A DNA stretch of 64,000 bases from Bdellovibrionales bacterium (GTDB lineage: Bacteria; Bdellovibrionota; Bdellovibrionia; Bdellovibrionales; UBA1609). This document shows, piece by piece, positions 11,950 to 51,305 of the stretch (its first letter is position 1; every line of letters begins with the position of its first letter). The translations under genes were made by a program, and so were the position numbers. The notes under the pieces are model-generated. The model was not told the DNA's origin and did no database searches. It saw only the letters and a program-made list of their open reading frames with translations. The DNA is taken from the NCBI GenBank assembly GCA_965205645.1, contig OZ242172.1:120863-184862 (forward strand), written 5' to 3'.

Positions 11950-12555
11950 TTACACATTGACTTTTTTCCGACTGGATACAATATGATCCACTAAGCGAAA
12001 ATTTAAAGCTTCCTTAGCGCTCATGTAACAATCCCGATCCATTGCTTCTGTAAGTTCTTTTTCTTTTTTACCCGTATGTTTCGCATAAATTTCCGCCATT
12101 TTTTTCTTTGTCAGTGACATCTCCCGAGCTTGTATTTCAATATCACTCACTTGTCCGGATAACCCCTCTCCTGCAACATGCGGCTGATGAATCATCACTC
12201 GTGCGTGAGGTAAGATATATCTTTTACCAGGTGCTCCGGAAGCTAGTAACAGAGAACCCATACTGGCAGCTAGTCCAATACAATAAGTTCTCACATCACA
12301 CTTAATAAACTGCATAATATCATATAGTGCGATTCCCGCTGTCACACTACCCCCTGGAGAATTAACATAAAGATGAATATCCTTTTCTGGATTATCCATT
12401 TCCAAAAAGAAAATTTGCGCGATGATGCTGTTAATCACCTCATTAGTCACTGCCGTGCCCAGCATAATGATACGATCTTTCAACAGCCGCGAATAAATAT
12501 CGTAACTTCTTTCCCCTTTCGGGGTTTGTTCAATCACAATAGGAACGAGGACCAA
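11950..12555 (-). CDS. clpP: ATP-dependent Clp protease proteolytic subunit ClpP
   Basis: 'VPIVIEQT..GERSYDIYSRLL', 'NSPGGSVTAG', Ser in 'AASMGS', His in 'MIHQP'. TTG start 6 nt after AAGGAG. Confidence 0.95.
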   Translation of the reverse strand: MVLVPIVIEQTPKGERSYDIYSRLLKDRIIMLGTAVTNEVINSIIAQIFFLEMDNPEKDIHLYVNSPGGSVTAGIALYDIMQFIKCDVRTYCIGLAASMGSLLLASGAPGKRYILPHARVMIHQPHVAGEGLSGQVSDIEIQAREMSLTKKKMAEIYAKHTGKKEKELTEAMDRDCYMSAKEALNFRLVDHIVSSRKKVNV

Positions 12556-12812
12556 AATAAACTCCTTATTTAACTGATTAGACTTAAGTTTTATTTACTA
12601 TATTATCTTGATGTCTTTAACACTATATGTCGGGTGTCTTGTGTATTCACTTAAGCCCTTATTTGGAATAAATACTAAATGAAAAACTTAGGATAAAGGT
12701 TTGTCCGCTCATTGAAAATATGTTACACATCATCCACTGATCAAAACAGTGAGTTTTAAGCGATTACTACATATAAAAACATAACTAATCACTTAACAAG
12801 GAGTACAGAATA

Positions 12813-14303
12813 GTGAAATTAACTATTTCCAGTTCGACAGATGGCCATCCAGCTTGCCAAATCGTCTTTGCATCTAAAAAAGGAGCAACAGACCTGAAGT
12901 CCGTTCCAGCACTCGCCCGCTTAGTCACACAACTAAATCAACAAAAAATATTCACTGGCCGATTAGAGGAAGCTTTATTTATTCCTTGTGGAGGATTAGG
13001 AAAAGCTAAACATTTACTCTTGATTGGCTTAGGCGATCCAGGAAAAGTTAATCCTGAAGTGATTCGCGCTGCCTGTAGCAAAGCGATTCGGAAGTTAGAA
13101 ATACATCAACAAGAATCAGCGAGCTTGGATTTTTCATTGCTTCTTCCTTTTATTAAGAACTCACAAAATCTAGCATCAACGATTAGTGAAGGATGTCTTT
13201 TAGCAGCTTATCACTTTACTAAGAAGCAGAAAAAAAACAAAAATACTGGAAGCGTCAAGCAGATCACTCTTCTTCGCACAAAAGATAATGTAGCTATTAA
13301 AAAAGGGCTGGCACAAGGATCCGCTGTCGCTGAAGGAGTTAATTTTGCACGTTGGCTGGCCGATCACCCGCCTAATCTAATGACTCCCACTATATTAGCA
13401 ACAGAAACACAAAAAAAATGTGAGAAAATAAACGGGTTAGAAATCACTGTATGGAATAAGGCGCGCATTACAAAAGAAAGAATGGGTGGAATCTTAGGCG
13501 TGTCAGCGGGTAGCAATCAAGAACCACGAGTAATGATTATGAAATATCAACCGACGGGTGCAAAAGGAAAACCAATTTGTTTTGTCGGTAAAGGACTCAC
13601 TTTTGATTCTGGCGGAATCAGTCTTAAGCCAGCGAAAAATATGGATGAGATGAAATTTGATATGTGTGGAGGAACGGCAGTGATCGGAGCGTTGCTGACT
13701 ATTGCACGTTTAAAACTCAATGTGCCGGTTTTAGGCTTAGTGGGAGCTTCAGAAAATATGCCGGGTGAAGGGGCAACAAAGCCGGGAGATATTTTAACCG
13801 CTCGCAATGGAACAACAATGGAAGTGTTAAACACAGACGCAGAAGGACGGTTGGTATTGGCAGACATTTTATCTTATGCTAGCGAACAAAAACCAGAATG
13901 GATTATAGATGCCGCCACTTTAACCGGGGCTATTGTAGCTGCCTTAAGTAATATTTATACCGGCTTATTTACTCGCCACCTAAGTCTTAGAGATCAAATT
14001 CAAAAAGCAGGTGAAAATGTAGGAGAAAAAATCTGGGCAATGCCGTTAGATGATTTTCATGTAAAGGACATTCAAAGTACAATAGGAGACGTCGCCAATA
14101 TATCATCTGTTTCCGGTGGAGGCAGCTCTACCGCTGCTGCATTTTTAGAGCATTTTGTGGACAAACATATCCCGTGGGCACATTTGGATATTGCCGGTAC
14201 CGCTTGGAATGTATCTAATCGTCTAGCTTACTGTCGGCCTAAGTCGGCATCCGGAGTCATGGTGAGAACTTTTGTTGAACTTGCCCGCACACATATCCGA
14301 TGA
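12813..14303 (+). CDS. pepA: leucyl aminopeptidase (M17)
   Basis: 'VGKGLTFDSGG', 'NTDAEGRLVLAD', 'DIAGTAW'. GTG start. Confidence 0.9.
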   Translation: MKLTISSSTDGHPACQIVFASKKGATDLKSVPALARLVTQLNQQKIFTGRLEEALFIPCGGLGKAKHLLLIGLGDPGKVNPEVIRAACSKAIRKLEIHQQESASLDFSLLLPFIKNSQNLASTISEGCLLAAYHFTKKQKKNKNTGSVKQITLLRTKDNVAIKKGLAQGSAVAEGVNFARWLADHPPNLMTPTILATETQKKCEKINGLEITVWNKARITKERMGGILGVSAGSNQEPRVMIMKYQPTGAKGKPICFVGKGLTFDSGGISLKPAKNMDEMKFDMCGGTAVIGALLTIARLKLNVPVLGLVGASENMPGEGATKPGDILTARNGTTMEVLNTDAEGRLVLADILSYASEQKPEWIIDAATLTGAIVAALSNIYTGLFTRHLSLRDQIQKAGENVGEKIWAMPLDDFHVKDIQSTIGDVANISSVSGGGSSTAAAFLEHFVDKHIPWAHLDIAGTAWNVSNRLAYCRPKSASGVMVRTFVELARTHIR

Positions 14304-14310
14304 TTCTAGC

Positions 14311-15024
14311 ATGACGTATAAAAAATTTTTCAAAGATAAACGGCTATGGATAAGCTTGTTGTCTCTATGCACATTTTTAGTGGGTTACCAGATTGCTGAA
14401 AAATCATGGGATAAAGAAATCTTTATTTACTTAAACCCTGCTAGCGCCACAACAGCATCTGTTAGAAATATAGCTAGCTTACAAAGTTCATCCATTAAAC
14501 TACCTTCTTCTTTAATATTAAAAGAAGGAGCTCTTAAGAAAGAAAGTCAGAAAGATTTTGTCCATGCCTCCTACGTGAAGCATCAAGGACCAATGATTCA
14601 TTTATATTTAAGTCGATTTATTACACCCACAAAAGACGGAGGATACACACCTCCCTGCCAACAGTATCAAACAATTGATATTATATTTACCGCGCACCGT
14701 GAATTTATTCACGGACATGAACCGAAAATGAATTTAAAAACACCGTGTATTGTTAATACAGAAAATCCCGCTCTCTTAGGACCCTTTGCTATTCCTAAAC
14801 ATCGTATTCTTACGTCCCCCATCCGGCGACAAGTGTTCCACTCTCCTTTAGTGCAACCACATGAGGGCAAAGCAACGTTATTATTTAGCCATCTAGGATT
14901 ATCCTGGCCCACTGAATGGATTCTCACACAGCTAAGATTTAGTAACAAAAATGATAAGAAGGACCTATCTATTTATTTTTCTTCCGACCGACCGGAAGAT
15001 TATCTCACACTCCATTTAAAATAG
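14311..15024 (+). CDS. hypothetical membrane-anchored protein
   Basis: Start taken at Met14 (ATG 14311), giving 'MTYKKFFKDKRLWISLLSLCTFLVGYQI' with one N-terminal TM. No recognisable domain. Confidence 0.45.
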   Translation: MTYKKFFKDKRLWISLLSLCTFLVGYQIAEKSWDKEIFIYLNPASATTASVRNIASLQSSSIKLPSSLILKEGALKKESQKDFVHASYVKHQGPMIHLYLSRFITPTKDGGYTPPCQQYQTIDIIFTAHREFIHGHEPKMNLKTPCIVNTENPALLGPFAIPKHRILTSPIRRQVFHSPLVQPHEGKATLLFSHLGLSWPTEWILTQLRFSNKNDKKDLSIYFSSDRPEDYLTLHLK

Positions 15025-15095
15025 CCCCCTCAAAGGGAGAGTGACTTCGCCGCGATTCCTTGCATGCATGTCACAACTTTGCAAATTACTTGAAT
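15025..15095. repeat. dispersed repeat unit U1 (intergenic copy)
   Basis: 'ccccctcaaagggagagtgacTTCGCCGCGATTCCTTGCATGCATGTCACAACTTTGCAAATTACTTGAA' shares its core with units at 25146, 44446 and 44503. It starts right after the stop codon at 15022-15024. Confidence 0.7.
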
Positions 15096-15115
15096 CTCTC
15101 TATTAAATTAAAAAA

Positions 15116-16348
15116 TCAAACGGAAGATAAATGTTGTGTTTCATAGGCTAAAGCTAAAACACCCAAATAAGCCACCCATCCATACACATTTTCCATAGGA
15201 TTACCTTCCACTTCAATCTCTAAATCAGAAACGCAAAGTGTGCGATACACTGCCCCCGGACTGTTTAAATTATCTTTCGTCCCTTTATCCTTATGCGTGC
15301 GCAAAAAACCACCCACAAGATCACCACCAATTAAATAAATCACCGGTTCTGACACTGAACCTTTTGTTTTTAAATGAGAACTAATCCCCTCTTGAATAAT
15401 TAATTCCGTCACTTGTGCTCCACCTTTAGCTGCTTTCATTTTCTTCTTAATTTTATAATTCCAATGATCAATATCTTCAGAAGAATGAATAGTTGTCATC
15501 CCCAAACCATAGGTACCAGAATTGTTTTTTAAAAACACAAAAGGTTTTTGCCCTAATTGCTGATACTCCGGTTGTAATTTTTTTAAAAAAATATCTACTT
15601 GCTCTTTTAAGCGTTTTAAACACAATGAATCATGGACATTGAACTCCGTAAACCTCTGTGTCTGAATGGTTAAAGCGCTGGAATGAATATGTATTAACTC
15701 AGCAAATTCAACAGCTAATTTATTATATGTATGAAAAAAAGTATGTTTTTTTCGATTCTGCCAACCGGTGACAGGAGGAGGAATAACCGGCACGGAAAAT
15801 TGTAGATCATAATTAGTTGAAAAATCATTATTACTAATCACCAGATCTGCACTATCCATTTTATTCTTTAAAAGAGATACCTTCAGCGTGCGACCAGATG
15901 CTGTAGCCAATATCCGATCCTTTAAAATAATCTCACCTGGGACACACACTTCTACCTTTGGTGCAGAGAATTGTTTAGTGGAATGCATTTTCCGCAGACC
16001 GTTTTGAATGAGTGTTTTTAACGTATACACATTATCCCAATAAAAAGGATTATGTGTGTGTTCTTCCGCCAATAAAATAACATTTGCCGCTGCCGGATAA
16101 TATGTTTTTAAATAACGATATATGAATTCCGGTGCAGCTTCCCGATCCACTTCACAAATATTATTGAATCCGGCTGGAAATAAATTAGCATCTACCGGTG
16201 TGATTTTACGTGCAGAATCCCGTAAATCAAAACTAGAATAAAAAGGGAATAATAAGCCACTCGTTTTTTGATGAAACCAATTAAGCGCAGAATCATAATA
16301 TTTCACAATATTATGATGAATAGTATCTTTTATCACTTGCTCTGGCAT
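15116..16348 (-). CDS. probable glutamate--cysteine ligase (small GshA type of the Acidithiobacillus ferrooxidans family)
   Basis: The N-terminal 'FDLRDSARKITPVDANLFPAGFNN' resembles what I recall of that GshA family. About 410 aa. The call rests on memory of the family pattern only. Confidence 0.5.
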   Translation of the reverse strand: MPEQVIKDTIHHNIVKYYDSALNWFHQKTSGLLFPFYSSFDLRDSARKITPVDANLFPAGFNNICEVDREAAPEFIYRYLKTYYPAAANVILLAEEHTHNPFYWDNVYTLKTLIQNGLRKMHSTKQFSAPKVEVCVPGEIILKDRILATASGRTLKVSLLKNKMDSADLVISNNDFSTNYDLQFSVPVIPPPVTGWQNRKKHTFFHTYNKLAVEFAELIHIHSSALTIQTQRFTEFNVHDSLCLKRLKEQVDIFLKKLQPEYQQLGQKPFVFLKNNSGTYGLGMTTIHSSEDIDHWNYKIKKKMKAAKGGAQVTELIIQEGISSHLKTKGSVSEPVIYLIGGDLVGGFLRTHKDKGTKDNLNSPGAVYRTLCVSDLEIEVEGNPMENVYGWVAYLGVLALAYETQHLSSV

Positions 16349-23224: not shown

Positions 23225-24403
23225 GTGTTTTATTTTTTAGGAAAAGGCCCTTATTCAAAATCTCTTCTGCTAAGGGCTTTGGCCACACAAAGTTACTTTC
23301 CCACACTTCGCATTATGGGTGCTTCCAGCAGCGATGATGTACTGAACATGAAAATAGGATTAAAATGTATTCAACTAGGAGATAAGCGACCGGTTTCTTG
23401 CGGAAATGGAGCGGCGCCATTTCGTTTTTTAGCCCTCCGAGCCAGTCGTGAAAGTGGATGCTTTATTTTAAAATGCACAAAGCGCTTACTACACAGGCCC
23501 CAGGAAGAACTACAATCTTTATTGCAGCAGTTAGGCAGTACAGTAACATTTAAAGAAGATAGCTTAATGATAAAAACTCGTGGCTGGAGGATTAGTGGTG
23601 ATGCGTTAACAGTCAACGGTGAACGTTCCAGTCAATTCGCAAGCGCCCTGTTATTAAATAGCTGGAACTTTAATCAAGACATCTACATAAATATTGAAAG
23701 CAAAATGCGATCTTATTCATATTTTCAAATGACTCTAGATTTTTTACGTCAATTAGGCATGCACATTGAAGGAGAATCCGGAGAGTATTATATTCCCAAA
23801 AGACAAAAAATAAAGCAACTCATCTATCAGCCGGAGCAGGACATGAGCTGCTTATTTGCCATAGCGGCCTGTACAGTAAAAGGAGGACAAGCCACCTTTC
23901 AAAATTGGCCGACAACCAGTCTGCAACCGGATTTTATTTTTCCTACTGTTCTGGAAAAAATAGGATTCCAAGTGAAAAAACAGTCTTCTCTATTAAAAAT
24001 ACACGGCGGTAAAGCGTTACGTCCCATACATTTAAATTTAGACAATACGCCGGATTTATTTCCTGTTTTAGCCGCACTGTGCGCGCTCGCCAAAGGGAAA
24101 AGCCAATTAACCGGCGCAAAACATTTACAATATAAGGAATCCAATCGTATCACCGCGATGGCGGATCTGTTAAAAAGCGTCGGACGCAAAATCCATATCT
24201 TAGAAGATGGTTTAACCATATACGGTCAGCCTCTTACAGAAAGAGAAACACCAATGATCTTATTTGATCCAAAAGAAGATCATCGCTTGGCAATGGCTGC
24301 AGGAATTCTAAAGCAAGCGGGCGCTTCAATCAAAATTTTAAATCCGGAAGTGGTCAACAAAAGCTTTCCAAATTTCTGGCAAACCACAGGAATTAGCCCT
24401 TAA
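23225..24403 (+). CDS. aroA: 3-phosphoshikimate 1-carboxyvinyltransferase (EPSP synthase), short form
   Basis: 'SKSLLLRALA', 'RSSQFASALLL', 'DLFPVLAALCALA', 'YKESNRI', 'DHRLAMA'. GTG start. Confidence 0.88.
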   Translation: MFYFLGKGPYSKSLLLRALATQSYFPTLRIMGASSSDDVLNMKIGLKCIQLGDKRPVSCGNGAAPFRFLALRASRESGCFILKCTKRLLHRPQEELQSLLQQLGSTVTFKEDSLMIKTRGWRISGDALTVNGERSSQFASALLLNSWNFNQDIYINIESKMRSYSYFQMTLDFLRQLGMHIEGESGEYYIPKRQKIKQLIYQPEQDMSCLFAIAACTVKGGQATFQNWPTTSLQPDFIFPTVLEKIGFQVKKQSSLLKIHGGKALRPIHLNLDNTPDLFPVLAALCALAKGKSQLTGAKHLQYKESNRITAMADLLKSVGRKIHILEDGLTIYGQPLTERETPMILFDPKEDHRLAMAAGILKQAGASIKILNPEVVNKSFPNFWQTTGISP

Positions 24404-24405
24404 AC

Positions 24406-26343
24406 ATGATTTACTTAATCATTGGACACCGTGGTACAGGAAAAACATCTTGGCTTAAAAAAATAAAAAAACTGTTTAAAAGCAAAGTAATCCTCTTAGA
24501 TTTGGATAAAGAAATTATAAAACGTGATGCTTCCTGGAAAGCCAATATATGTTGGAATAAAAACGTTCCACCCATCAATAGATGGTTTTTAAAGAGCCAA
24601 ACACAATTTCGCCGCCTTGAGCGAAAAGTGCTAATGGATTTAATCCATCAATACCAATCACAAAAACAAGACACATTTATTGCTGTTGGTGCTGGAGCAA
24701 AAATTAACCCAAAAGGATGTTATGTGCTGCATTTGATTCGTGAAACCGATTCGGATGGCAGGGTATTTTTAGATCGTCCGCGGCTAAACCCGAAATTAAG
24801 CCCTTATGAAGAGTCCCTGTTTTTATATTCCAAACGCGAGAAATATTATCAGCAAGTGCGGGATGAAAGTTTTATTTTACCAGAGCAGGACATGACTTTC
24901 ACAGAATCGGAAAAAATTTTTTTTGGATTAAAAGAAGGGCAGCTAGGAGCTAGCATCACTTTAAATAAAAACACTTTACCTAAAGATCCTAATAAATGGC
25001 CGACATTTATTAATAAACGATTAAAGTGGGGACTACGGTTTTTTGAATTTCGGAATGATGAATGGAGCCTGGCATCCTTAAGAAAAGGCCCTGGGAAAAA
25101 TTTGTTAAACCTTATCCCAAAAAAAAAACAACTGTTTAGCTTCCGCCCCCAGAGGGGGTCACTGCGCCGCGATTCCGCCGCTCCGATGTCACAACTTTAC
25201 AAAACATGTTTACAAACCTCCCGCTCGCTAAAAAAATTATCGATTGCTACCTGGGATTGGATGATAGAAACAGGGCCACCGCCTGCTGTTCCCCCCATCT
25301 TATCCGCGCATCATAGAAATGGAAAAAATCTTCGCCAAATATGCAAAGAGTTTTTAAAATATAAAGCGGATCACTATAAACTAGCCATCCCTATAAAAAA
25401 TTTGAAAGAACTTTTAGAAGGTCATTTATGGTTTTTAAAAGATCCAAGCCGTCGATCTTTTCTACCCACGTCTTTAAAGCAAGCGACCGATGATTCTTTT
25501 TCCTGGCGATGGTATCGGCAAATTTTCGGCCCGAAAATGCACTTAAATTTTATCAGAGAATCAAGAGGGCAGGGATTAAAAGATCAAGCTTTTCTATGTG
25601 AAGTCTTTGAGAGAAGAAAACCAACCAGTCATTTAAAATTTGGAGCCGTACTTGGCCTACCCGTTTCGCATTCCGCAAGCCCGGGGTTTTATAGAAAGCT
25701 CTTTGCTAAACATAAGATGATTTTTACTAAAATACCTTTAACGGAAAAAGAATTTACAAAAGATCATTTACGTATTTTACAAAAAATGGGTTTGGTTTTT
25801 GCAGCAGTCACCTCGCCACTAAAGAAAAAAGCATGGATGATTTGTGATCAAATGGATACCAATGCACGTAGATTTCAATCAGTGAACACTTTAATTTTTA
25901 AAAACAAAAAATGGTTGGGCAGTAATACGGATTTATTTGGCGCAAAAACTTTGTTAAAAGCAGCAGGTCTCGGCAGAACGTTTCATCCGGAGCAAATAGT
26001 GGTATGGGGTGGAGGGGGAACAAGAGCTGTTTTAAAACATCTAATGCCTTTAGCTACTTTTTACTCTGCCAGATCCAAACAAAAAATATTTGGAAAAAAG
26101 CAAAGTATCCGACCAATAGTTATTATATGGGCAGTCGGACGAAGACGCATGTCTGATAATATGTTTCCTTTTATGAAATGGCGCCCACGGACAGTGATTG
26201 ACTTAAATTACACAGTGGATTCCCCGGGAAGGGAGTATGCCATGCAAACTGGCGCAAAATACATTTGCGGCACGCAAATGTTCCAAGCACAGGCGGAAAA
26301 GCAGGAAGAATTGCTATTAAAACATTATCCCCTAAAAAAATAA
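24406..26343 (+). CDS. trifunctional fusion: shikimate kinase / type I 3-dehydroquinate dehydratase / shikimate dehydrogenase
   Basis: N-terminus has P-loop 'GHRGTGKTS' and 'FRRLERKVL' (AroK-like). The middle has 'ILSAHH...ADHYKLAIP' (AroD type I-like). The C-terminus has 'GLPVSHSASPGF', 'AAVTSPLKK', 'SVNTL', 'GSNTDLFG', 'WGGGGTRA' (AroE). It starts 2 nt after the aroA stop. Confidence 0.8.
   Translation: MIYLIIGHRGTGKTSWLKKIKKLFKSKVILLDLDKEIIKRDASWKANICWNKNVPPINRWFLKSQTQFRRLERKVLMDLIHQYQSQKQDTFIAVGAGAKINPKGCYVLHLIRETDSDGRVFLDRPRLNPKLSPYEESLFLYSKREKYYQQVRDESFILPEQDMTFTESEKIFFGLKEGQLGASITLNKNTLPKDPNKWPTFINKRLKWGLRFFEFRNDEWSLASLRKGPGKNLLNLIPKKKQLFSFRPQRGSLRRDSAAPMSQLYKTCLQTSRSLKKLSIATWDWMIETGPPPAVPPILSAHHRNGKNLRQICKEFLKYKADHYKLAIPIKNLKELLEGHLWFLKDPSRRSFLPTSLKQATDDSFSWRWYRQIFGPKMHLNFIRESRGQGLKDQAFLCEVFERRKPTSHLKFGAVLGLPVSHSASPGFYRKLFAKHKMIFTKIPLTEKEFTKDHLRILQKMGLVFAAVTSPLKKKAWMICDQMDTNARRFQSVNTLIFKNKKWLGSNTDLFGAKTLLKAAGLGRTFHPEQIVVWGGGGTRAVLKHLMPLATFYSARSKQKIFGKKQSIRPIVIIWAVGRRRMSDNMFPFMKWRPRTVIDLNYTVDSPGREYAMQTGAKYICGTQMFQAQAEKQEELLLKHYPLKK
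25146..25216. repeat. dispersed repeat unit U2 (in-frame inside the aro fusion)
   Basis: 'cccccagagggggtcacTGCGCCGCGATTCCGCCGCTCCGATGTCACAACTTTACAAAACATGTTTAC'. Translated as 'PQRGSLRRDSAAPMSQLYKTCL'. Confidence 0.7.
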
Positions 26344-26378
26344 CTGAAAAGAATACCAAAATTGTCTATAAAACCTTT

Positions 26379-27377
26379 ATGGGAGCAAACACATTTGGCA
26401 CTTATTTTCAGGCCAGCACTTTTGGAGAAAGCCACGGACCGGCTCTCGGTGTTGTGATAGAAGGCTGCCCAGCCGGAGTGCCATTTTCATGGGAGCTGCT
26501 TCAGCAAAAATTAGAGCAAAGACGTCCCGGGCGCTTTGCATGGACATCTGCCCGACAAGAAAAAGATCAACCGGAGCTGTTAAGCGGAGTATTTGAAGGA
26601 CGTACGATAGGCACTCCTATTGCTTTAATCGTAAAAAATCAAGATGCTCGCCCAGAGGATTATGATCATATTAAAGATCATCCACGCATCGGTCATGCGG
26701 ATGATGTATGGAAAAAAAAATTTAATTGGGTGGATCCACGTGGGGGAGGGCGAGCTTCTGGGCGAGAAACTATTAGCCGTGTCATAGCCGGCGCAATCGC
26801 ACAAATGTTTTTAAAACAGATCTTACCTCCATTACGCATTATCGCTTTTCCTATTCAAATTGGCCCCTTTAAAAGAACAGACTTTCCTAAACCGGATGAA
26901 GTCAATGAACAAAAATGGTTTGGCGGGCAAAGCTTAGAAGTGGAAAAATTTTTAGTGGAGCAAAAACAAAAAGGACTGAGCCATGGTGGAGCGCTCAGAG
27001 TGGAGATCCTACATGCACCAACCGGCTTAGGACAACCAGTGTTTCACAAGTTAAAGTCTGATTTAGCGGCAGCCTTTATGAGTATTGGAGCTTGCTATGC
27101 AGTCACCTTAGGAGAAGAACAAGATATCTATTTAAAAGAAGGCAGTCAGTTACACACACAACAAAATGCCGATATATATGGAGGGATCCGTGGAGGGATT
27201 TCCACCGGAGAAAAAATTATTTTTCAGTTAAAATTTAAACCACCCGCGTCTGTGTTACATATTGCTAAAAAAGGCCGCCACGATCCGTGCATTGTGCCGC
27301 GAGCAGCAGCTGTGGCTGAAGCTATGGCATGGCTTGTGATAGCGGATCACGTCTTATGGACTCGCTTAGACAAATAA
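26379..27377 (+). CDS. aroC: chorismate synthase
   Basis: 'FGESHGPALGVVIEGCPAG', 'GGGRASGRET', 'GRHDPC'. Start at ATG 26379 ('MGANTFG'). The ORF track extension to 26265 overlaps the previous gene. Confidence 0.93.
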   Translation: MGANTFGTYFQASTFGESHGPALGVVIEGCPAGVPFSWELLQQKLEQRRPGRFAWTSARQEKDQPELLSGVFEGRTIGTPIALIVKNQDARPEDYDHIKDHPRIGHADDVWKKKFNWVDPRGGGRASGRETISRVIAGAIAQMFLKQILPPLRIIAFPIQIGPFKRTDFPKPDEVNEQKWFGGQSLEVEKFLVEQKQKGLSHGGALRVEILHAPTGLGQPVFHKLKSDLAAAFMSIGACYAVTLGEEQDIYLKEGSQLHTQQNADIYGGIRGGISTGEKIIFQLKFKPPASVLHIAKKGRHDPCIVPRAAAVAEAMAWLVIADHVLWTRLDK

Positions 27378-43715: not shown

Positions 43716-45368
43716 GTGAAGATAGCTCTAGCCCAAATTAATCCTTCTATGGGGAATATTTCCCTAAACCAAAAAAAAATTTTAAACTGGTGTTTAAAAG
43801 CCAAAAAACAACAAGCAGACTTAATTATTTTTCCTGAGATGGCTACCAGCGGTTATTCACCACTAGATATATTAAAACAAAAATGCTTTTTACAGAAAAC
43901 ACAAGCAGCCGTGCAAGCGATTTGCCAACGTCTGCCAAGCGGACTAAGTGTTATTTTAGGTAGCCCAGCAGGTCATACGCCACCAGCAACAAATAGTGCA
44001 TTTGTTCTACAAAAAAACAAATGTAAAACATACTCCAAACAAATCCTCGCAGACTACGACGTCTTTGACGAAAAAAGATATTTTAAAAAAGGCTTATTAA
44101 AAGATAATTTTTTCTATTTACAAAAAATAAAAACACAGCTGCTGATCTGTGAGGAAATGTGGCAATTAGAAAATCATCACATCCAGCTAGATAAACCTCA
44201 GCTCATCATTAGCATTCACGCTTCCCCTTTTGAAATATATAAACATAGAAAAAGAGAAATGATAGCTAGCCGGCTAGCTCAAACATACCAATGCCCATTG
44301 ATTTATGTGAATTTAATCGGAGGACAAGAAGAACTTATCTTTGACGGTGGAAGTTTTATCCTTAACCCCCAAGGAGAAAAACTATATCAAGCGCCATTTT
44401 TTAAAGAACATTTAACAATAATATCCATCACCCCACCAAAGAAGGTACCTTCGCCGCGATTCCCTGCACCTATGTCACAATCTTACACATCAAGTTTACC
44501 AAGTGACCCCCTCTGGGGGCGCCGCGATTCCTTGCACCCATGTCACGACTCTGTAAATTATGTTCACTTAATATCTGCTCTAGTATTTGGAATCAAAGAA
44601 TTTGTACGTAAAAATAATTTCAAAAAAATACATTTAGGGCTTAGTGGTGGACTAGATTCTGCTGTACTTAGTCACCTGGCCTGCCAGGCATTAGGTGCTA
44701 AAAATGTAAGCCTCATTTTTTTACCAGGGCCTTTTACTTCTTCACTTTCTTTTAAAGCGGTTCAAGATTTATCCAAAAAACTTAACTGCCAACTATACAC
44801 TTATAGTATCACTCCTACTTATCAACGAATTTTAAAAAATTGGCCAAAAGGCTTTGGGAAATCACGTGCCAGGAGTAAAGAAAATCTACAAGCTAGAATC
44901 CGATGTCTTTATCTAATGGCATGGTCCAACCAATATCCACAAAGCCTGCTGCTTGGATCATCTAACAAAAGTGAGTTGTCATTAGGTTATGCCACCTTAT
45001 ATGGCGACCTAAGCTGCGGACTTCTACCTATTGGAGATCTATTTAAAACAGAAGTTTTACAGTTAGCAAAGCATCTTAAACGTCCTGCTATTCCTCATGC
45101 TATTCAACATCGCCCCCCCAGTGCAGAATTAAGAGCAAATCAAACAGATGCACAAGATATTCCTCCTTATCAAGTATTAGATCCAATCCTTAAAAAACTA
45201 ATAGAGCTTCAAAAAGATCCTCAAAATAAATTAGAAAAAAATATTTTCAAACAAATATTACTTAGCGAATTTAAAAGACGGCAAGCTGCACCAATACTAA
45301 AAGTTAAAGAACGTAGTTTTGATAGAGGCTGGAGATATCCTCTTTCTGTTCAACCAAAGTTTTTTTAA
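43716..45368 (+). CDS. nadE: glutamine-dependent NAD+ synthetase
   Basis: CN-hydrolase half ('DLIIFPEMATSGY', 'LLICEEMW') and NAD synthase half ('GLSGGLDSAV', 'SNKSELSLGYATLYGD'). GTG start. Confidence 0.9.
   Translation: MKIALAQINPSMGNISLNQKKILNWCLKAKKQQADLIIFPEMATSGYSPLDILKQKCFLQKTQAAVQAICQRLPSGLSVILGSPAGHTPPATNSAFVLQKNKCKTYSKQILADYDVFDEKRYFKKGLLKDNFFYLQKIKTQLLICEEMWQLENHHIQLDKPQLIISIHASPFEIYKHRKREMIASRLAQTYQCPLIYVNLIGGQEELIFDGGSFILNPQGEKLYQAPFFKEHLTIISITPPKKVPSPRFPAPMSQSYTSSLPSDPLWGRRDSLHPCHDSVNYVHLISALVFGIKEFVRKNNFKKIHLGLSGGLDSAVLSHLACQALGAKNVSLIFLPGPFTSSLSFKAVQDLSKKLNCQLYTYSITPTYQRILKNWPKGFGKSRARSKENLQARIRCLYLMAWSNQYPQSLLLGSSNKSELSLGYATLYGDLSCGLLPIGDLFKTEVLQLAKHLKRPAIPHAIQHRPPSAELRANQTDAQDIPPYQVLDPILKKLIELQKDPQNKLEKNIFKQILLSEFKRRQAAPILKVKERSFDRGWRYPLSVQPKFF
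44446..44567. repeat. two tandem units (U3a, U3b) of the dispersed repeat, in-frame in nadE
   Basis: U3a is 'taccTTCGCCGCGATTCCCTGCACCTATGTCACAATCTTACACATCAAGTTTAC'. U3b is 'gtgaccccctctgggggcGCCGCGATTCCTTGCACCCATGTCACGACTCTGTAAATTATGTTCAC'. Confidence 0.7.
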
Positions 45369-51062: not shown

Positions 51063-51086
51063 ACAATATATTCAGAATATATCTAC

Positions 51087-51305
51087 TTATCTTTTTTTTC
51101 TACGAGCTTTTTTCTTACGAGCAACTTTTTTCTTACGAGTCACTTTTTTCTTACGAGCAACTTTTTTCTTACGAGTAGTTTTTTTCTTACGAGCAACTTT
51201 TTTCCTTCTTGTTACTTTCTTTTTTCTCTTAGTTACTTTTTTCCTTCTTGTTACTTTCTTTTTTCTTCTTATCACTTTTTTTCTTCTCTTTTTTTTAGCA
51301 GGCAT
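51087..51305 (-). CDS. extremely basic K/R-rich hexapeptide-repeat protein (H1-like nucleoid protein candidate)
   Basis: Start preferred at ATG 51305 after GGGAGGA. The product is 'MPAKKKRRKKVIRRKKKVTRRKKVTKRKKKVTRRKKVARKKKTTRKKKVARKKKVTRKKKVARKKKARRKKR'. The DNA shows an 18-nt periodic repeat 'cttacgagcaactttttt'. A terminator follows. Confidence 0.65.
   Translation of the reverse strand: MPAKKKRRKKVIRRKKKVTRRKKVTKRKKKVTRRKKVARKKKTTRKKKVARKKKVTRKKKVARKKKARRKKR

Follow-up and report, generated by a model that had tools for sequence, protein, structure and literature searches.

The question raised by this locus is how a catalytic domain can come to hold, in-frame, a piece of DNA that recurs elsewhere in the same genome. 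We analysed 64,000 nucleotides of contig OZ242172.1 from the Bdellovibrionales bacterium assembly GCA_965205645.1 (hereafter the window; G+C 37%), in which a 645-amino-acid open reading frame (ORF; 24406-26343) encodes a fusion of shikimate kinase (SK), a type I dehydroquinase-like (DHQase) barrel and shikimate dehydrogenase (SDH). An initial annotation, made from the letters of the DNA, had placed one unit of a repeat at 25146-25216, inside the dehydroquinase part and in-frame between ...KKQLFSFR(247) and KKLSIATWDW, and this position proved correct. We find that the segment is a copy of a GC-rich repeat, here called unit A. We consider it probable, at roughly 0.8, that unit A is a lineage-restricted, selfish interspersed repeat and that its copy in the fusion gene is a translated passenger tolerated in a connector of the barrel.

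The segment at 25146 is a copy of a nucleotide-level repeat

A profile built from the copies locates exactly four units, each of them on the plus strand of the window (15025-15095, 25146-25214, 44430-44499 and 44506-44568); one is intergenic and three lie in coding sequence. Because such a profile is circular, being built from the very copies it recovers, two independent checks were added. With each other single copy as the query in leave-one-out nhmmer searches of the window, the 25146 copy was recovered at E = 1.9e-4, 1.9e-6 and 7.2e-4. Direct alignment of the 15025 and 25146 copies gave identity at 48/56 ungapped columns, or at 48/61 columns with gaps included (79%), close to the three quarters first estimated, and the local score of 47 is far above anything obtained with random 71-nt windows of the same sequence (n = 2,962; mean 12.4, standard deviation (sd) 2.2, maximum 24). 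The 11-mer GCCGCGATTCC occurs four times in the window against 0.46 expected, and the 25146 copy contains the GC-richest 50-nt stretch of the whole window (0.74, compared with a mean of 0.37 and an sd of 0.086). The similarity is thus far above background, and the segment is a copy of a repeat that exists at the level of DNA.

The distinction between DNA and peptide can be drawn from the coding copies themselves. Relative to the core of the unit, the copy in the fusion gene is read RRDS..MSQ, the first copy in the NadE gene SPRF..MSQ and the second RRDS..CHD. Since the three are read in different frame combinations, it is the DNA that is conserved and not the peptide. Moreover, of 108 homologues of the fusion protein, 105 do not have the insert, among them P0004 (56% identical) and all more distant ones. 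Both results bear out the original proposal of a nucleotide-level element as opposed to a conserved segment of the enzyme. The proposed size of 70 nt needs revision: the repeat is real, but the unit is longer, with the copy extending over ~25146-25228 and the inserted block measuring 84 nt.

The insertion site is a connector of the dehydroquinase barrel

The inserted block corresponds to 28 codons (P248-L275; 25147-25230) with the Arg247 codon immediately before it and the native Lys-Lys codons immediately after. Comparing orthologous fusions with and without the insert, as the initial annotation had suggested, we found the site empty in the orthologous locus L003 (...TTT CGT / AAA AAA AAA...), filled in the window (...TTC CGC, the 84 nt, then AAA AAA...) and filled in two further loci, L001 and L002. 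In the barrel, the site is the beta3-to-beta4 connector, between Arg247, which aligns with Arg82 of E. coli AroD, and Lys276.

Structure modelling had also been suggested as a check, and here the insert maps to a connector that is coil in the insert-free P0004. The AlphaFold2 (AF2) model of P0004 has strand beta3 at residues 244-248, a 15-residue coil with a block-mean predicted local distance difference test (pLDDT) score of 68, and strand beta4 at 264-267. In the model of the window protein, the corresponding strands (242-245 and 282-286) are confidently modelled and flank a coil at 246-258 followed by a helix at 259-278, with pLDDT blocks of 59, 74 and 83. E. coli AroD has helix alpha3 at this place; the fusion family is without it and has a coil of ~15 residues instead. 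The connector is 13-17 residues long in 80/108 homologues, and at the same place there are unrelated inserts of 29-52 residues in several other lineages. Taken together, alignment and models support a surface or connector position at a site that appears intrinsically permissive, and an already variable, poorly ordered coil would explain how the enzyme tolerates the insert. As the insert follows directly on the residue aligned with the substrate-binding Arg of AroD, its first residues would lie at the catalytic face of the barrel and not on a remote surface.

The dehydroquinase domain appears divergent, not degraded

The initial annotation had left a choice between a surface loop and a degraded or bypassed domain. 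The loop is upheld by the beta3-to-beta4 coil, its variable length and the AF2 models, and degradation is contradicted by the retained catalytic residues and by the selection on the flanks. With respect to bypass or splicing, nothing in the data requires it, and we regard it as very improbable.

The AF2 model of the window protein has a mean pLDDT of 91.7 and a predicted template modelling (pTM) score of 0.92. Foldseek matches it to the fungal AROM structures of SK, DHQase and SDH (7tbv, 6hqv) and to the DHQase-SDH structures 2gpt, 2o7s and 6bmb with template modelling (TM) scores of 0.65-0.67 normalised to the target (0.67 for 2gpt, from Arabidopsis). In agreement, a profile of the 108 homologues searched against the PDB finds shikimate kinases with its N-terminus, shikimate dehydrogenases with its C-terminus and the Arabidopsis DHQase-SDH enzyme from the middle onward. 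On the fusion protein, the only Pfam matches are to Shikimate_dh_N and, weakly, to AAA_14; there is none to DHquinase_I (PF01487) at gathering score. When the middle-domain profile is aligned with E. coli AroD (NC_000913), LFSFR247 pairs with LLFTFR82, SAH302 with SNH143 and YK325LA with PK170IA; hhalign gives the same pairing of Arg247 with Arg82, and both alignments put the insert directly after Arg82, in agreement with the fold match.

E214, H302, K325 and R371 are invariant in 108/108 homologues, the residue at R247 is Arg in 94/108 and that at Q394 is Gln in 106/108; the window protein has the family consensus at all six positions. The equivalents of the Schiff-base Lys, the catalytic His and the substrate-binding Args are therefore conserved in the fusion family, and the stretch aligned with AroD Glu86 holds no conserved residue. 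Between the window and L001, the flanks of the insert in the fusion gene have a synonymous divergence (dS) of 0.127 and a nonsynonymous divergence (dN) of 0.024-0.042, that is, a dN/dS of 0.19-0.33. Conserved catalytic residues and purifying selection on the flanks together argue that the domain is not degraded; it appears to be a divergent dehydroquinase, and enzyme activity is presumably retained with the insert in place.

Some further properties of the family were noted along the way. The entire SK-DHQase-SDH fusion family escapes Pfam DHquinase_I and is without barrel helix alpha3, and one homologue, P0092, carries the NCBI name 'shikimate synthase'. Homologues range from ~577 to 804 amino acids in length (108 aligned, alignment A4), and lineage-specific inserts of 15-84 amino acids cluster at connectors, after residues ~62, 101, 177, 250-278, 293, 405, 548 and 563 (window numbering). 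One of these, in P0035 (L108 10540-10648), is an intragenic 60-nt tandem DNA repeat that starts with a CCCAAAGGG hairpin. A second low-confidence segment of the window protein lies in the shikimate kinase domain (residues ~41-60, pLDDT 52-67; window 24526-24585). We detected no repeat there, and its sequence, SWKANICWNKNVPPINRWFLKS, is common to the nearest relatives only.

Distribution and turnover of the insert

Only two close relatives, P0002 and P0003, have the insert at the same site, and both have it in larger forms: the site measures 35 residues in the window protein, 119 in P0002 and 89 in P0003. At the 119-residue site, in L001 (ENA ERZ25067264), two tandem units with a 99-nt period are accompanied by a second component, module B; at the 89-residue site, in L002 (sponge metagenome SRR1576521), there is one unit together with module B. 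The window and its closest relatives at these loci (L001 and L104) are otherwise very similar, with nucleotide identities of ~98% in gshA, ~96% in nadE and ~94% in the fusion gene (gaps excluded in the latter two). Nevertheless, the length at the aro site differs by 84 residues between the window and L001, which has an additional tandem unit and module B. Within the insert itself, 17-18 of 72 nt are different (24%), a divergence roughly double the flank dS.

Throughout these changes the frame has stayed open. The 84-nt block, the 99-nt tandem period and module B are all without stops in the three genomes, and as this holds for each unit, tandem pair and composite, read-through translation of the insert seems likely. 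Judging from these comparisons, the element is the most labile part of both the aro and the nadE gene, and the insert behaves as one would expect of a passenger that is tolerated while AT pressure erodes it or other copies overwrite it.

Anatomy of the element

The coordinates of the element, its parts and its other copies are collected in Table 1. Unit A is ~70-99 nt long and consists of a 5' C5-N3-G5 hairpin, seen in most copies, a core CGCCGCGATTCC...ATGTCAC, an AT-rich stretch and a GC-rich tail. The tail, ..GTC..GGCGACTCGCC..GCCGC, is common to copies at two independent loci and is what extends the unit to ~99 nt. Module B is a palindrome of ~150 nt that forms a long hairpin; in the relatives, the composite of unit A and module B has a fold z of -6.5, and module B is ORF-open through the aro genes of both L001 and L002. 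It also associates with unit A at two intergenic loci, as remnants beside the gshA-side copies and intact beside a secF-side unit in L002. In the window, no intact module B was found, only the remnants at the intergenic 15025 copy. Thus, the full element is probably a composite of unit A and module B, and the aro copy of the window would most parsimoniously be a derivative that has lost module B, with the 13-nt direct repeat marking the module B junction.

Table 1. Coordinates of the host gene, of the parts and copies of the element, and of related repeats (window positions unless a locus is named).
Feature	Position	Strand	Details
SK / type I dehydroquinase-like TIM barrel / SDH fusion gene, 645 aa	24406..26343	+	ORF list, Pfam, profile, Foldseek, AF2
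Element copy in the aro fusion (unit A)	25146..25228	+	In-frame, P248 to about S274/L275: PQRGSLRRDSAAPMSQLYKTCLQTSRS(L); site empty in orthologue L003
5' mini-hairpin of unit A, CCCCC-AGA-GGGGG	25146..25158	+	Fold
Most conserved core: CGCCGCGATTCC, 9 nt, ATGTCACAAC	25165..25195	+	Invariant columns across copy alignments; pattern counts
Internal 13-nt direct repeat ACAACTTTACAAA / ACATGTTTACAAA	25191..25216	+	Place occupied in L001 and L002 by module B (~150-nt long palindrome)
Remnant of GC-rich 3' tail CTCCCGCTCGC	25218..25228	+	Aligned to tails of L001 aro copy 1 and of the L104 and L105 NadE copies
Intergenic copy: unit A (15025-15095) and module B remnants	15025..15135	+	Between convergent ORF 14272-15024 and gshA (15116-16348, minus)
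Unit A copy 1 in NadE (ORF 43716-45368)	44430..44499	+	Read ..PSPRFPAPMSQSYTSSL..
Unit A copy 2 in NadE, 5'-truncated	44506..44568	+	Read ..GRRDSLHPCHDSVNYV..; missing from closest relative
Module B (relatives)	L001 10900-11075; L002 10822-11000 and 5853-5975; L001 5875-6002		Accompanies unit A
Palindromic repeats of L108: tandem 249-nt and 266-nt units and interspersed copies	L108 9736-9797, 13732-13798, 15301-15807, 20120-20651		Fold z = -9.5; no Rfam match

Copies in NadE and beside gshA

The two units in NadE stand in tandem, 68 nt apart and in different frames (44430-44568), and take up the linker that joins the CN_hydrolase (aa 2-239) and NAD_synthase (aa 286-523) domains assigned by Pfam. 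Among relatives, the closest (L104) has one unit with the GC-rich tail, L105 has one unit, and L107 and more distant homologues have none; the comparison of filled and empty sites is blurred here by unit tail sequence. Just as in the fusion gene, the NadE ORF stays open, with homologous sequence on both sides of the repeats.

The intergenic copy begins directly after the TAG stop of ORF 14272-15024, and its module B remnants, in antisense, provide the five final codons and stop of gshA (...ETQHLSSV* vs ...ETQSILNEG* in L003). In the element-free L003, the counterparts of the two genes overlap by 20 nt. The unit hairpin together with a T-run on the minus strand of this copy scores as a terminator-like site for gshA. 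A role for unit A as a structured RNA or terminator was considered and rejected on the ordinary folding energies of the unit, the sole terminator-like match being the one just mentioned, on the opposite strand of the intergenic copy. Likewise, we did not accept the orientation bias of the copies as a sign of a role at the RNA level, as no more than two coding loci are informative and the two intergenic copies each sit between convergent genes.

Regarding the neighbours of the fusion gene, aroA (23225-24403) and aroC (26265-27377) are both intact, and aroC overlaps the fusion gene. In L001, the closest relative, ~1.4 kb with two small minus-strand ORFs (12190-13660) lies between the fusion gene and aroC, where the window has the overlap. 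Elsewhere in the window, 51074-51285 holds an 18-nt tandem repeat of ~10 units, TTTTTTCTTACGAGCAAC, the minus strand of which would encode a Lys/Arg-rich peptide repeat.

Range beyond the window

Among the loci examined, unit A was seen in the window and its two near relatives only; it is absent from L003, L107 and L108. An exact-pattern scan with the core in 185,579 species-representative genomes and the JGI metagenomes returned single partial chance matches only, on unrelated and mostly high-GC contigs (confirmed with nhmmer), and the same scan of viral contigs returned none; the scanned genome, metagenome and viral collections contain neither the source genome nor its relatives. At the peptide level, the concatenated frame translations of the unit were searched against an index of 5.8 billion proteins, which gave one candidate with shared words and none that scored. 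Rfam at permissive thresholds yielded no family, only sub-threshold noise such as miRNA-precursor-like matches to the palindrome. The host is a Bdellovibrionota/Oligoflexia-like lineage associated with sponge metagenomes, and the homologues of the host genes that bear source names are labelled Bdellovibrionales or Oligoflexia.

Module B reaches further than unit A. Its 72-nt core matches six sites in L108 (GCA_965243065.1) at 75-83% identity (blastn E 1e-9 to 5e-14), L108 being a distant relative with an Aro protein 44% identical to that of the window. The 22-kb L108 locus is rich in palindromic repeats and in insertion sequence (IS) transposases (DDE_Tnp_1, IS110 and Transposase_31). As the module B core is common to L108, small palindromic repeats appear to date far back in the wider clade.

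Weighing the explanations

That the segment merely resembles the other copies by chance, or is low-complexity GC-rich coding sequence belonging to no repeat family, has next to no likelihood. Nothing speaks for it, the alignment score lies ~15 sd above random windows, the cross-matches reach E 1e-4 to 1e-6, and the same unit is found at orthologous and at additional sites in independent assemblies. We also give very little credence to a dehydroquinase domain that is decaying into a pseudo-domain, in which an insertion would be harmless. The missing Pfam DHquinase_I match, the missing helix alpha3 and the want of a conserved residue at the AroD Glu86 stretch would suit such a decay, but these features are common to all 108 members and not peculiar to the insert-bearing ones. 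Furthermore, the catalytic columns are invariant or nearly so with the window protein at consensus in each, the flank dN/dS is that of selected sequence (0.19-0.33), the fold is confidently modelled and matches solved DHQase-SDH and AROM structures, and the aroA and aroC genes on both sides are intact. Just as improbable is an insert that escapes translation, either because the mRNA loses it or because the ribosome skips over it in the manner of T4 gene 60 or the mitochondrial 'byp' elements. No direct observation points to it; there is a GC-rich hairpin at the 5' end of the element, and all copies are sense-oriented relative to the host or upstream gene. However, this orientation sample consists of two informative coding loci only, no intron or ribozyme family matches, and the open frame is kept in every coding copy and combination in three genomes, which would be needless if the segment were skipped.

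A better case can be made for exaptation, in which the peptide encoded by the element would now be functional, for example as a substitute for helix alpha3 or as a regulatory or interaction segment, although we still consider this unlikely. AF2 predicts the helix at 259-278 where the insert-free orthologue has coil only, but with low confidence (pLDDT 59-83). The insert has been kept in-frame in three genomes, and within it the proportion of synonymous differences (pS, 0.42-0.52) exceeds that of nonsynonymous ones (pN, 0.16-0.18); the first ten insert codons even encode the same protein in the window and L001 despite four synonymous changes. On the other hand, the peptide of L002 is strongly different (PQMRLFRRDSAAYVLQ...), the length at the site is 35, 89 or 119 residues among close relatives, the nucleotide divergence of the insert (24%) is about twice the flank dS, and NadE reads the same DNA in other frames.

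Several observations weigh against a translated selfish passenger as we propose it. Over the first ten insert codons, the four differences that separate the window from L001 are all synonymous, which hints at some constraint on the peptide, in a comparison of 72 nt where the substitution counts are too few to decide the matter. The insert starts right after the residue that aligns with a substrate-binding Arg, and the residue-level alignment with AroD that defines this position is weak by itself (7 bits in hmmsearch; E 0.049 over 22 columns in hhalign). The folding energy of unit A alone is unexceptional (z-scores -0.8 to +1.2). From the standpoint of mobility, the aro and NadE copies, compared together with their flanks, show no terminal inverted repeats, and there is no clear target-site duplication, the aro copy being flanked by a weak A-run similarity only (TCCCAAAAAAAA / TCGCTAAAAAAA). 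No transposase partner for unit A turned up, the ORFs of the window not having been scanned for transposases. Finally, we infer translation of the insert from open frames, and the sequence base consists of 64 kb of the genome and ~120 kb of relatives.

A selfish repeat whose copy rides as a translated passenger nonetheless remains our preferred reading, and the following course of events would account for it. Unit A would have entered the fusion gene in the common ancestor of the window genome and its two close relatives, landing exactly between the Arg aligned with AroD Arg82 and the next Lys. The insert would be transcribed and translated with the host gene, adding ~28 residues to the beta3-to-beta4 connector, and would drift at or above the neutral rate, gaining and losing whole modules, with an open frame as the sole constraint. 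Spread would be selfish, by transposition or by recombination between copies; unit A is probably mobile in this sense, as suggested by its distribution over several loci together with the recent changes in copy number.

We lean slightly towards a broader interpretation, namely that unit A and module B belong to a repeat family not described before, one that is still active or was so until very recently, and that invades and turns over inside essential genes of a reduced-genome Bdellovibrionota-like lineage. This is because copy number differs between genomes that are ~95-98% identical in the flanking genes, and because the element is modular (unit A and a palindrome), with a palindrome core shared with a relative at 44% Aro identity. 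Rickettsia is the best-known case of short repeats invading housekeeping genes in-frame, and the phenomenon has often been regarded as a peculiarity of that genus. If the interpretation is correct, this lineage would be a second independent natural system, after the Rickettsia repeats, that routinely translates selfish DNA into new segments of protein. An unrelated element doing likewise in a different phylum suggests that the phenomenon recurs in small AT-rich genomes. In addition, the close relatives, with 14, 35, 89 and 119 residues at the site, would show as a natural experiment how much stretching a TIM-barrel connector can bear, and such inserts would inflate or distort gene models and domain annotation in the metagenome-assembled genomes of this clade.

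Comparison with known systems

With regard to the host domain, the closest parallel is the type I 3-dehydroquinase (AroD) of AROM-like fusions, with which fold and domain order (7tbv, 6hqv, 2gpt) and key residues agree; the domain differs from it in having no Pfam DHquinase_I match and in the replacement of helix alpha3 by a coil of ~15 residues, which is the insertion site. Yeast mitochondrial DNA has mobile GC clusters, including in-frame insertions in VAR1. Unit A resembles these as a GC-rich short repeat that forms islands in an AT-rich genome and is tolerated in-frame, but the comparison is between an organelle and a bacterium, there is no sequence relationship, and the mobility mechanisms proposed for the GC clusters are unrelated to anything seen here. 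Among bacterial repeats, the repetitive extragenic palindromes (REP) and the bacterial interspersed mosaic elements (BIME) are ~35-nt imperfect palindromes that are extragenic and linked to REP-associated tyrosine transposases (RAYT), whereas 3/4 of the unit A copies lie inside genes and the sequence of the unit is no simple palindrome. [quoted passage not shown]

The best comparison is with the Rickettsia palindromic elements (RPEs), which the summaries of the original work describe as short repeats that sit, in-frame, within housekeeping genes unrelated to one another (Ogata et al. 2000 and 2002, as covered in PMC10969869 and PMC1166351). Like the RPEs, unit A is a short interspersed repeat of a small AT-rich genome that occurs both between genes and, in-frame, inside housekeeping genes with no relation to each other, the host proteins of which would be expected to keep fold and function. 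Where RPEs are short repeats of ~100-150 bp in coding and non-coding DNA, we find four copies in 64 kb of a unit of ~70-99 nt, and the insertions in the aro and NadE genes appear to be in-frame without disruption of the ORF. The composite of unit A and module B in the relatives also holds a long palindrome with the ORF open through it. Unit A itself, however, is not palindromic (fold z -0.8 to +1.2) and is GC-rich, only the composite being strongly palindromic. Its copies are read in different frames and encode no conserved peptide, unlike the RPE copies, each of which is reported to encode one in the account of PMC10969869. Its host is Bdellovibrionota/Oligoflexia-like, and unit A is set apart from the RPEs by these features and not by sequence comparison. 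In summary, unit A works like an RPE but falls outside that family on palindrome, frame and host; it is a clade-restricted new example of a known phenomenon, the in-frame invasion of genes by RPE-like repeats, in a new phylum and at an unusually well-defined site beside an active-site residue.

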